In this document: one piece after another, positions 24,262-26,508 of the stretch | Numbering within the stretch: the stretch's first letter is position 1 | How the letters are laid out: every line of letters starts with the position of its first letter | From: an uncultured Thermoplasmata archaeon | Lineage (GTDB): Archaea; Thermoplasmatota; Thermoplasmata; Halarchaeoplasmatales; Halarchaeoplasmataceae | Reading direction: 5' to 3' | Length of the DNA: 55,350 bases | NCBI GenBank assembly: GCA_964399335.1 | Contig: CAYNQI010000003.1 | Coordinates: 1-55,350 of the forward strand | Notes under the pieces: generated by a model | The model's database searches: none | What the model saw: only the letters and a program-made list of their open reading frames with translations | What the model was told of the DNA's origin: nothing | Translations under genes and position numbers: made by a program

Positions 24262-25215
24262 ATGGTCGATAAAATGAGCGAAGAAGAAATAAAAGAGTTG
24301 CCAGGAGTAGGACCCGCAACTGCAGAAAAGCTCATGGATGCAGGTTATAAAGACCTGATGGCCATAGCGGTTGAATCCCCCCGTGTACTCGCCGATGTTG
24401 CAGAGATAGGCGAGGCAACGGCAGGGAAGATCATAAACGCTGCTAAAAAGGCTGCAGACATCGGTGGGTTCGAAACAGGCGACCAAGTACTACAGAAAAG
24501 AAAAGAAATCGGAAAGCTATCGACTGGAGCAGAATCCTTCGATAACCTTTTAGGTGGAGGGATCGAAACCCGTTCCATCACTGAATTTTATGGGGAATTC
24601 GGATCCGGTAAGACTCAGTTAGCCCACCAGTTAGCTGTGAATGCCACTCAACCAGTTGATGAGGGTGGATTAGAAGGTGAAGTCGTGATAATCGATACTG
24701 AGAACAGTTTTAGACCTGAGAGGATAATTCAGATCGCAGAATATCATGATATAGACCCTCAAGAAGTATTACCTAAAATCCATATAGCTAGGGCTTTCAA
24801 CACACACCATCAGATGCTTTTAGCTGATAAGGCATTAGAGATGGGTGAAGATAGCCCGATCAAGCTTTTGATAGTTGATTCTTTGACTTCTCATTTCAGG
24901 GCTGAATATGTAGGTAGAGGTGCACTAGCTGAGAGGCAGCAGACCTTGAACAAACATCTACACAAGTTACTCAAATTTGCGGATAGGCACAATGCAGCGA
25001 TAATAGTTACTAATCAGGTTACTTCAAATCCAGACCAATTCTTTGGCGATCCGACAAAACCGATAGGCGGAAACATACTTGGACATACAGCTACGTTCAG
25101 GATATATCTGAGGAAATCAAAAGGCAATAAAAGGATCGCAAGACTGGTAGATTCACCTAATATGCCTGAAGGCGAAGCTGTCATACGATTAGAAGAAGGA
25201 GGAGTCTTGGGTTAA
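24262..25215 (+). CDS. radA: DNA repair and recombination protein RadA
   Basis: [13 protein letters not shown] Hh[33 protein letters not shown]. No intein. Alternative start is ATG 24274. Confidence 0.96.
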
Positions 25216-25375
25216 GCGATGGGTTTGAACTTATAAAAATCTCTGGATACCCATTTTACTTTTTTTATTTATTAATTATTTAAATATACTCTATAATAGA
25301 GAGATTATATGGTATAATTTCGTCAAAATAAACATAGCTATTTATACCTTACACAAAATTATCAATAATTTTACC

Positions 25376-25388
25376 ACAAAATATAAAT
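25376..25388 (+). promoter_or_regulatory. Putative BRE/TATA for the downstream small RNA
   Basis: ACAAA-ATATAAAT lies about 24-31 nt before the G run at 25412. Confidence 0.5.
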
Positions 25389-25411
25389 TATCCTATGAGA
25401 ATTTTTGTATC

Positions 25412-25479
25412 GGGGAAAACCGGGGCTAGTAGGTTAGAGTGCATCCCATCCCACCATCCTTCCCGACCTAGCCCTCCCC
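25412..25479 (+). ncRNA. Candidate ~68-nt hairpin sRNA with a C-rich (UCCC-repeat) loop
   Basis: GC-rich island in AT-rich intergenic DNA. Stems GGGGA/UCCCC and GGGCUAG/CUAGCCC; TATA upstream, T-tract downstream. Confidence 0.6.
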
Positions 25480-25495
25480 TTTTTTCTTTTTTTTT
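25480..25495 (+). terminator. Oligo-T archaeal terminator
   Basis: TTTTTTCTTTTTTTTT immediately after the hairpin. Confidence 0.6.
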
Positions 25496-25503
25496 CAATG
25501 GTG

Positions 25504-26508
25504 TCACCTGATGCCCATGTAATATATTACTGCGATCAGGACTCCTAATAAAGCCAGCCAAATCATCAAGGCATCTCTGGTCAATCTTTTAGCTTTTTTT
25601 GCTTCCCACCATGTACTTGGTTCAATACCCTGGACGATGAAAGTTAAAACTCCAGATAAATTGATGCAGATCAGATTGATCAAAAACAGCATCATCGCTA
25701 GAAAAGATAATGAATAGTGGCCAGAACCCAATAATAGACCAGATGCTACCAAAGTCGGAACCAAGGCTATGGCCACCATGACCCCTATCAAAGTTGCTGA
25801 TATACCTCTAGTATAAGCTAAAGCCCCGGCACTTCCCGCCGCTAGGGCAAGGGCGACATCTCCGTAACCTACATTGGTCCTAGCCATGATCTCCGTTGAG
25901 GTGGTTGGATCAGTGGTCAAAAAAAGTCCCAAAACAACAGCGATCATGAATCCGAGGATTATTCCGAATAAATTAGCTTTAAGTGCCCTTTTAGCAAGTG
26001 TAAAGTCTGCTAAGGTAGTGGCTAGCGATAGTCCTACATTTGGCCCCAGCATAGGGGCGATCACCATGGCACCTATAATCACTGCAACGTCACTCCTCAA
26101 CACTCCGATGGAAGCTACTATAGCGGAAAGTCCTATCAAAAGAATATACACTGAAGATAATTTCACTTCATCGATAGCAGAGTTGTAAAGTTCTTCCCTG
26201 CTTACACCTTTAGTTTCTTTTCGATCTTCTTCCTTTTCTTCAGATTCTTCTTTTTCTGATTCCTGTATAGGTAAGCTGGCCTGGACGTCGAACATCAACA
26301 ATCTAAACCCTTCATAGCTGCCAAAATTGTCTTCCAGCTTATCTATAACAGTCTGGTTCTTCTCTGCATCTACCAATATTTTGATCTGAACTTTTTTCTC
26401 CGATACTTTACCGAACCAGAAATCGAAGACTTTACTATCGTCTTCTAAAAGATTTTCAGCGTCGGTTTTTTTCTCCTCAGGTATAAGCATCTCGATCAAT
26501 CGAAGCAT
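25504..26508 (-). CDS. TIGR00341 / DUF389 family membrane protein
   Basis: IIGAMVIAPMLGP, EIMART, GVMVAIALVP, LFLINLICI. Confidence 0.88.
   Translation of the reverse strand: MLRLIEMLIPEEKKTDAENLLEDDSKVFDFWFGKVSEKKVQIKILVDAEKNQTVIDKLEDNFGSYEGFRLLMFDVQASLPIQESEKEESEEKEEDRKETKGVSREELYNSAIDEVKLSSVYILLIGLSAIVASIGVLRSDVAVIIGAMVIAPMLGPNVGLSLATTLADFTLAKRALKANLFGIILGFMIAVVLGLFLTTDPTTSTEIMARTNVGYGDVALALAAGSAGALAYTRGISATLIGVMVAIALVPTLVASGLLLGSGHYSLSFLAMMLFLINLICINLSGVLTFIVQGIEPSTWWEAKKAKRLTRDALMIWLALLGVLIAVIYYMGIR

Follow-up and report, generated by a model that had tools for sequence, protein, structure and literature searches.

A small RNA gene conserved across the phylum Thermoplasmatota, with a C-rich loop predicted to pair with the smc leader

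A GC-rich element located between radA and a DUF389 gene in an uncultured Thermoplasmata archaeon is, on the evidence of comparative sequence analysis, a real small RNA gene that has not been catalogued and that has been kept across the phylum Thermoplasmatota. Its role is most likely to help control chromosome segregation and cell division through base pairing. The complementarity of its loop, which is conserved, appears to be gene-specific and not generic anti-Shine-Dalgarno (SD) complementarity, and the best-supported mechanism is a predicted specific pairing with the leader of smc and with a few co-regulated genes.

The gene was analysed within a window, here meaning the whole stretch of 55,350 nt of DNA, in which the following features were located.

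24262-25215, plus strand: radA, the upstream neighbour of the small RNA gene
25373-25389, plus strand: promoter, consisting of a BRE-like ACCACAAA and a TATA box ATATAAAT, the latter centred about 27 nt before G25412
25412-25479, plus strand: small RNA gene, a 68-nt GC-rich imperfect long hairpin (covariance model match at 25414-25480, 67.4 bits)
25412-25415, plus strand: 5' arm of the outer stem, GGGG, which pairs with CCCC at 25476-25479 in the MFE fold
25423-25429, plus strand: 5' arm of the inner stem, GGGCUAG, which pairs with CUAGCCC at 25468-25474
25437-25452, plus strand: invariant loop core GAGUGCAUCCCAUCCC, the proposed seed, with 100% identity across genera
25453-25464, plus strand: family-specific loop extension ACCAUCCUUCCC, which makes the loop larger and is found in every genus of the window's family
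25468-25479, plus strand: 3' arms of the inner stem (CUAGCCC) and outer stem (CCCC)
25480-25495, plus strand: 16-nt T-tract TTTTTTCTTTTTTTTT, an archaeal-type terminator of a plus-strand transcript
25504-26508, minus strand: DUF389 gene, the convergent downstream neighbour

Inspection of the sequence placed AATATAAATT at 25380-25389 with ACCACAAA directly before it, and the 288-bp spacer between radA and the DUF389 gene was seen to house the BRE and TATA box, the GC-rich segment and the T-tract. A separate T-rich run belongs to radA (about 25254-25270), and no T-run follows the hairpin on the minus strand. The GC-rich island, its TATA box and 16-nt T-tract, the T-tract of radA and the closing stems had all been described in an earlier note on this DNA, and each was recovered here. 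With a promoter and terminator of its own and no open reading frame, the element has the sequence features of an independent transcription unit; transcription would proceed on the plus strand from this promoter and end at the T-tract, yielding an RNA of about 68 nt. The window DNA is AT-rich (genome GC content, 38.7%) and the element is present once in the 1.57-Mb assembly, which disposes of the concern raised in the earlier note that it might be a dispersed repeat or MITE; terminal repeats are also lacking, and the position is orthologous across the family. The nearest named relatives are sediment genomes labelled "Thermoplasmata archaeon", and the stretch itself recurs in soda-lake and salt-lake metagenomes.

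Known classes of RNA did not account for the element. No Rfam family matched it at the gathering score, nor was there any match at E <= 10 around it, and homologues from other orders were likewise unmatched. As the loop motif also had no relevant occurrence in the searched literature, the opinion in the earlier note that no known family is represented was borne out. A tRNA, split tRNA or tRNA-like gene was rejected, as ARAGORN predicted 0 tRNA genes in the window, RF00005 gave no match and just 38 nt separate the acceptor-like arms. Box C/D and H/ACA guide RNAs were discounted on the absence of their boxes from the sequence and of an Rfam match to the element, and the covariance model of the RsaE family had no match on it. 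A sub-threshold match to the box C/D RNA sR52 (25564-25610, minus strand, 16 bits, E = 0.59) falls inside the DUF389 reading frame and is probably due to chance. Among RNA data sets, one metatranscriptome contig from a related genus spans the RNA together with 1 kb of flank, although contigs cannot show ends or strand; one RNA run gave no cover of the element, a result that carries no evidential weight. In DNA runs from soda and salt lakes, contig depth rose 15- to 18-fold from the flanks to the conserved core (25410-25477), from 12 to 181 and from 128 to 2245. This excess shows that an identical core is shared by many community members, and assemblies break at it.

Conservation was investigated by a DNA search of 60 relatives, which recovered homologues in 34 of the 35 genomes of the window's family and the 5' half of the element in the majority of the class's remaining families. 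Within the family, conservation in the alignment extends over the promoter, the two stems, the loop and the T-run but not over the flanking spacer, with a block ACC(A/G)CAA-N-TATA(A/T)AT standing at a constant distance; TATA-like boxes are found at an equal distance in other orders, and almost every homologue has a T-run 3' of its hairpin. Several genera share an identical stretch of 40 bases, CGGGGCUAGUAGGUUAGAGUGCAUCCCAUCCCACCAUCCU. The exact 15-mer core GAGUGCAUCCCAUCC was present in 82 of 151 evenly sampled genomes of the phylum (0 for a reversed control), a count that underestimates the family since variants in some genomes were scored negative. With strict filters, a covariance model derived from a single class failed to detect most Poseidoniales; exact-motif counts were used in its place, and both approaches undercount variants. 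An exact scan for GAGTGCATCCCATCC, using one genome per species, found it in nearly every lineage of Thermoplasmatota, including Methanomassiliicoccales, uncultured "Thermoplasmatales" and Poseidoniales (MGII), and the bacterial matches were at the expected chance level. The RNA was also seen in genomes of Methanomassiliicoccales and Methanomethylophilaceae. Where the exact 15-mer is missing, GCAUCCCAUCCC recurs in other scaffolds: genome G060 carries the variant GGAAGGAUAGGC...GGCAUCCCAUCCCCUCC...GCCUGUCCUUCC, with GGCAUCCCAUCCCCUCC as the seed, and genome G048 has a TATA box, GGGAAGCGCAUCCCAUCCCUUCU and a T-run. Three complete genomes from two further families yielded no convincing homologue. 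Partial copies comprising the first 27-32 nt (GGGCUAGCAGGUUAGAGUGCAUCCCAU) and then diverging were noted at four loci, L048-L051 (G018 C6, G010 C22, G022 C4 and G026 C11), with DUF63, GlmS-like and DUF488 genes as neighbours; that these represent att sites was considered and rejected, no integrase being found nearby.

In the MFE fold, GGGG(A) pairs with (U)CCCC and GGGCUAG with CUAGCCC, and the C-rich stretch is left unpaired. The window sequence alone folds no better than its shuffles (z = -1.03). In a test in which the loop was kept open and each arm was shuffled separately, z was below -2 for 40 of 48 representatives with less than 70% identical arms (mean z, -2.9). A sequence-based alignment of one class had the inner stem paired in 98.7% of cells with a few compensations (UA to CG and GC to AU). 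A model-based alignment of 54 sequences, which leans towards the model, gave compensatory changes in 13 of 17 pairs and 84 cells, compared with 38 cells in shuffles; none of 500 shuffles scored as high, slid controls collapsed, and the inner stem was 96.7% paired with both sides changed in five of its seven pairs. The covariation among homologues that the earlier note had named as a check on its proposal was thereby found, and once relatives are compared the sequences point to RNA structure far beyond chance. Between orders the stems are wholly different and the pairing is retained. The stem words, by lineage, are GGGCUAG/CUAGCCC, GGCUGG/CCAGCC, GGUCAG/CUGGCC, GUACAGG/CCUGUAC, GAACAGGG/CCCUGUUC and GAAAGGGUUAG/CUAACCCUUUC, and the outer stem is replaced in other lineages by GGGAA/UUCCC, GGAAGGA/UCCUUCC or, again, GAACAGGG/CCCUGUUC. 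In every lineage UGCAUCCCAUCCC is held at the tip of a hairpin of 55-75 nt and closed by GAG/CUC or AGAG/UUCU. The loop of the window's family has an additional ACCAUC(CUUCCC) relative to all others; the extension ACCAUCCUUCCC is absent from the other families, in which UUCUGAC closes the upper stem right after the core.

The gene always lies 3' of a protein gene on the same strand, and the identity of that neighbour varies by lineage: radA in the window's family, an Sm-like (LSM) gene at 49 loci of one large lineage (L098, L102, L152 and L178-L246), an M24 peptidase gene in Poseidoniales, and DUF7121, with SRP54 downstream, in Methanomassiliicoccales. In the uncultured LSM-linked lineage the RNA is found 50-100 nt behind the LSM gene, on the same strand and before hutU, and the genomes of this lineage hold one or two additional full paralogues at other positions, all with separate promoters. 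Overall, some lineages have two or three full paralogues per genome, again with promoters of their own. A second small RNA occurs in genus g7 (L171, L172 and L173, motif at about position 1002, on the minus, minus and plus strands, respectively), in which a TATA box precedes an RNA with AGUGCAUCCCAUCCCAC at its 5' end, then a terminator hairpin, GGGGCUGAC...GCCCC, and a T-run. The seed is unchanged here and the scaffold is a different one. A motif that stays constant while the scaffold changes shows the behaviour expected of a seed sequence.

Candidate partners of the loop were sought by a seeded duplex search of the genome, followed by a filter for non-coding positions. Most genome-wide matches were coding (R-M-G-C or G-W-D-A codons) and unconserved, many of them weak and G-rich, and no perfect or near-perfect complement exists in this genome except the antisense strand of the gene itself. 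Against 16S rRNA and the regions flanking it, the loop paired no better than chance. Several further candidates were rejected. The start region of radA contains AAGGAUGGU, which is confined to one genus, whereas the loop is conserved family-wide, and radA upstream regions in the family genomes pair at -11.8 kcal/mol, similar to shuffles. The strongest duplex genome-wide, at -38.6 kcal/mol with the full 28-nt loop, lies within the coding sequence of a large ATPase, whose paralogue reaches only -30, and was treated as chance; this duplex (G000 C48:1849-1905, codons E-G-W-S-G-G-M-D-E; C21:6649-6693) is the best extended match for the family loop extension. The T1-loop codons of FtsZ (GGAUGCAA) match over 7-8 nt only, in two of six paralogues, and recurrent AGGAUGGGAUGCA matches in relatives proved mostly to be R-M-G-C or G-W-D-A coding sequence. 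No site was found behind the stop codon of either RHH gene upstream of ftsZ in this genome. After filtering, the two top sites were one before the gene for a 301-aa membrane protein (C11) and an intergenic one on C12, which is the smc leader. The genome-wide target prediction advocated in the earlier note returned specific, conserved sites in the smc leader and at the membrane-protein AUG, and did not return SDs in general.

With the 16-nt core, smc ranked first of 1139 upstream regions in this genome, at -27.0 kcal/mol against a median of -10.3. The site, GGGAUGGGAU...AUGCACUC, is about 60 nt upstream of the SD, in a leader that reads, in order, a TATA box between two GTCNGAC boxes, GGGAUGGGAU[CAAGCAU]GCACUCUAA at about -83, some 50 variable nt, GGAGG and a UUG start. 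All 30 smc loci retrieved for the family have (G)GGAUGGGA (GG(G)AUGGGA), a variable spacer of 5-8 nt and AUGCACUC at -80 to -92, and the aligned leaders show no conservation beyond these two blocks, the GTCNGAC boxes and the SD. The mean pairing energy of the family leaders was -26.1 kcal/mol, compared with -12.3 +/- 1.0 for shuffled cores and the value given above for radA upstream regions, energies of this kind being inflated by GC-rich leaders. Among 16 RNA-carrying relatives at class level, which are not independent samples, 15 had a site of -18.7 kcal/mol or better, and in many of them it follows directly behind the GTCNGAC boxes; the exception, G041, reached -15.7 kcal/mol and has no site. 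Relatives of the class in which the RNA was not detected gave -13.4 (G057), -14.0 (G045), -9.8 (G059) and -8.5 kcal/mol (G138), a correlation of presence and absence that is drawn from few genomes with incomplete detection of the RNA. Good smc sites were also present in several genomes lacking the exact 15-mer (G102, -25.0; G081, -28.5), in which the RNA may be a variant.

The smc site is present in most of the remaining RNA-carrying families, and its form differs between them. It is bipartite in the window's family, with a target bulge of 5-8 nt, and stands away from the SD. In other families of the class it is contiguous and comes directly after the GTCNGAC boxes, examples being GGGAUGGGAUGCGCU (G036), GGGAUGGGAUGCAG (G052 and G038), AUGGGAUGCACUCA (G056 and G044) and GGAUGGGAUGCACCG (G051). 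In families f32 and f35 the match is shorter or bipartite and near the predicted 5' end. Only in Poseidoniales (four of five tested) and family f21 does the match overlap the SD and AUG, for instance GGGGUGGGAUGUACU in G081, and this overlap is weaker evidence, as a G-rich SD plus AUG favours any C-rich probe.

The second site, GGGAUAGGAUGC, spans the AUG of the 301-aa membrane-protein gene and ranked fourth of 1139 in this genome. About 26 of 30 loci, spread over most genera of the family, keep it behind paired GTCNGAC boxes, and a single central A-C mismatch with the seed is always present; start-site function (SD and AUG) could account for part or all of the conservation of this site. Paired GTCNGAC boxes were found at only three loci of the genome:

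L309:2406-2434 (G000 C12): promoter of smc
L310:1054-1072 (G000 C11): upstream of the membrane-protein gene
L311:1990-2018 (G000 C8): promoter of the double-RHH (CopG-type) gene that lies directly before ftsZ and is itself at L311:1651-1968, minus strand

The boxes of a pair are spaced by 5 or 15 nt, with a TATA box between them or just upstream, and are conserved in relatives. From their sequence and placement they look like the operator of a regulon for cell division and segregation. As both predicted targets share these boxes with the operon of ftsZ and its CdrS/CdrL-like RHH gene, the small RNA appears to form a post-transcriptional layer of this regulon.

Taken together, we consider with moderate confidence that the gene encodes a trans-acting, base-pairing small RNA with the smc leader as its main partner, the membrane-protein start as its second and a place as a layer of the regulon. 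Under this model the hairpin stems would be a mere scaffold and the unpaired, apical GAGUGCAUCCCAUCCC would act as the seed. The main partner would be the 5'-proximal leader of the mRNA for SMC, the ATPase of chromosome segregation, and the second, in the family, the translation start region of the conserved 301-aa membrane protein. The model requires that the smc site GGGAUGGGA...AUGCACUC be within the transcript and near its 5' end. Pairing over an SD and AUG, as predicted at the membrane protein here and at smc in Poseidoniales and one other family, would be expected to block initiation; for a site at the start of a long leader, as in smc here, altered mRNA stability or leader folding would be more likely. 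That the bipartite smc site of this family keeps clear of the SD counts as a point against the model.

The main rival to pairing with smc is a protein-binding or sequestering role, in which the C-rich loop would dock a KH-domain protein (aNusA, aCPSF1 or Dim2) or an Sm-like protein and complementarity to mRNA would be secondary. Invariance of 13-16 nt of loop across a phylum is indeed unusual for an mRNA seed, the loop resembles the 3' end of 16S rRNA at 7 of 10 positions, and the RNA ends in a U-tail, a feature bound by Sm-like proteins. The close, same-strand location behind LSM at 49 loci of one lineage also fits such a role, but since the neighbours vary by lineage (radA, lsm, M24 peptidase, DUF7121 and SRP54), the adjacency to lsm looks like ordinary synteny. 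The motif is, moreover, carried in varied scaffolds and positions, and protein binding would not predict blocks of complementarity in the smc leader that outrank all other upstream regions. This explanation was judged unlikely.

Less probable again is a general anti-SD-like RNA whose UCCC repeats would bind many G-rich ribosome-binding sites in the manner of staphylococcal RsaE and RNAIII. The earlier note had proposed an SD-targeting, trans-acting RNA, and much of that proposal stood, namely the stand-alone gene, the conserved, unpaired, C-rich loop and the predicted pairing with G-rich mRNA; what did not stand was general SD binding, for the loop and the local SD consensus GGAGGUGA are not complementary (the 16S tail being GAUCACCUCCU). 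An SD and AUG are overlapped at the membrane protein and at smc in Poseidoniales and f21, and weak G-rich matches are plentiful genome-wide. However, those matches are for the most part coding and unconserved, the conserved target block AUGCACUC is not SD-like, the smc site in this genome is located some 60 nt before the SD, and the site at the radA start is not conserved. A cis-acting element of the neighbouring gene, whether a 3'-UTR or terminator structure of radA or what is left of a mobile element or att site, is highly improbable. It would suit the constant position downstream of a same-strand protein gene and the partial 5' copies in some genomes, but the element carries a conserved promoter, a separate T-run follows radA, the upstream gene changes between orders (with lsm, M24 peptidase, DUF7121 or SRP54 in place of radA), and the element is single-copy without terminal repeats, while no integrase lies beside a partial copy.

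Archaeal small RNAs whose target is known are very few, and to our knowledge conservation throughout a phylum is seen in none of them. The predicted RNA resembles sRNA162 of Methanosarcina mazei and other trans-acting archaeal small RNAs (PMC3510493; reviewed in PMC4152357) in being an independently transcribed small RNA, here by prediction, with a predicted unpaired region that pairs with mRNA 5' regions, translation starts included. It differs from sRNA162 in having no sequence or Rfam relation to it, in its conservation over the whole phylum and its invariant 16-nt seed, and in that its predicted main target is smc and not a metabolic regulator. With RsaE and other Rsa RNAs that display unpaired UCCC (PMC2790875) it shares an unpaired loop with (A)UCCC repeats and G-rich partner sites, in which an SD and AUG can be included. 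Unlike RsaE, which is bacterial and unrelated in sequence and fold and whose Rfam family gave no match, its conserved pairing covers 13-16 nt and appears gene-specific in place of a short SD match.

The RHH proteins CdrS and CdrL govern ftsZ2 in Halobacteria (PMC7439475, PMC8406309), and repression of cdrS-ftsZ2 in Haloferax lowers ftsZ1, sepF and an smc homologue (PMC8406309). The arrangement here is alike in that an RHH regulator gene lies directly upstream of ftsZ; its product is a candidate CdrS/CdrL-like regulator with putative binding to GTCNGAC. In this genome, it is the RHH-ftsZ operon, smc and the membrane-protein gene that have the paired GTCNGAC boxes in common, and a small RNA is not part of the haloarchaeal CdrS/CdrL regulon as described (PMC7439475, PMC8406309). 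No description of post-transcriptional control of SMC or cell division in archaea was found in the searched literature. The analysis offers a candidate promoter motif, the paired GTCNGAC boxes, tying together smc, the RHH-ftsZ operon and an uncharacterised membrane protein, as well as a concrete pair for testing, the seed GAGUGCAUCCCAUCCC against the smc leader, in cultivable Methanomassiliicoccales and in marine Poseidoniales. The family is absent from RNA catalogues, to which it should be added, and is overlooked by current genome annotation.

Homologues of the hairpin were also detected in two distinct contigs of head-tail viruses, at L416:3986-4036 (plus strand) and L443:4973-5023 (minus strand), with a loop, CUGUAGAGUGCAUCCCAUCCCUUCU, of the Methanomethylophilaceae type; L421 duplicates L416. 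The 15-mer had 45 viral matches, mostly chance coding ones, and the hairpin was present in only three contigs (two of them distinct). One copy lies between the genes for the major head protein and a structural (virion) protein and the other between the portal and large terminase genes, and their location within structural modules suggests viral exploitation of the control point. A wider reading is offered tentatively, its chances being put somewhat short of even: the RNA would be a phylum-wide riboregulator of the cell cycle, its frozen seed pairing with smc and with mRNAs of the GTCNGAC regulon to couple segregation to division, and viruses would have captured copies to reprogramme the handling of the host chromosome. 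A further arrangement was observed at three loci of G060 (L290, L291 and L292), where GCAUCCCAUCC and its exact complement GGAUGGGAUGC occur about 30 nt apart, an adjacency that would put seed and target within a single inverted repeat, which follows a common AACCAAAAUUUUCG...AAAAUAU leader.
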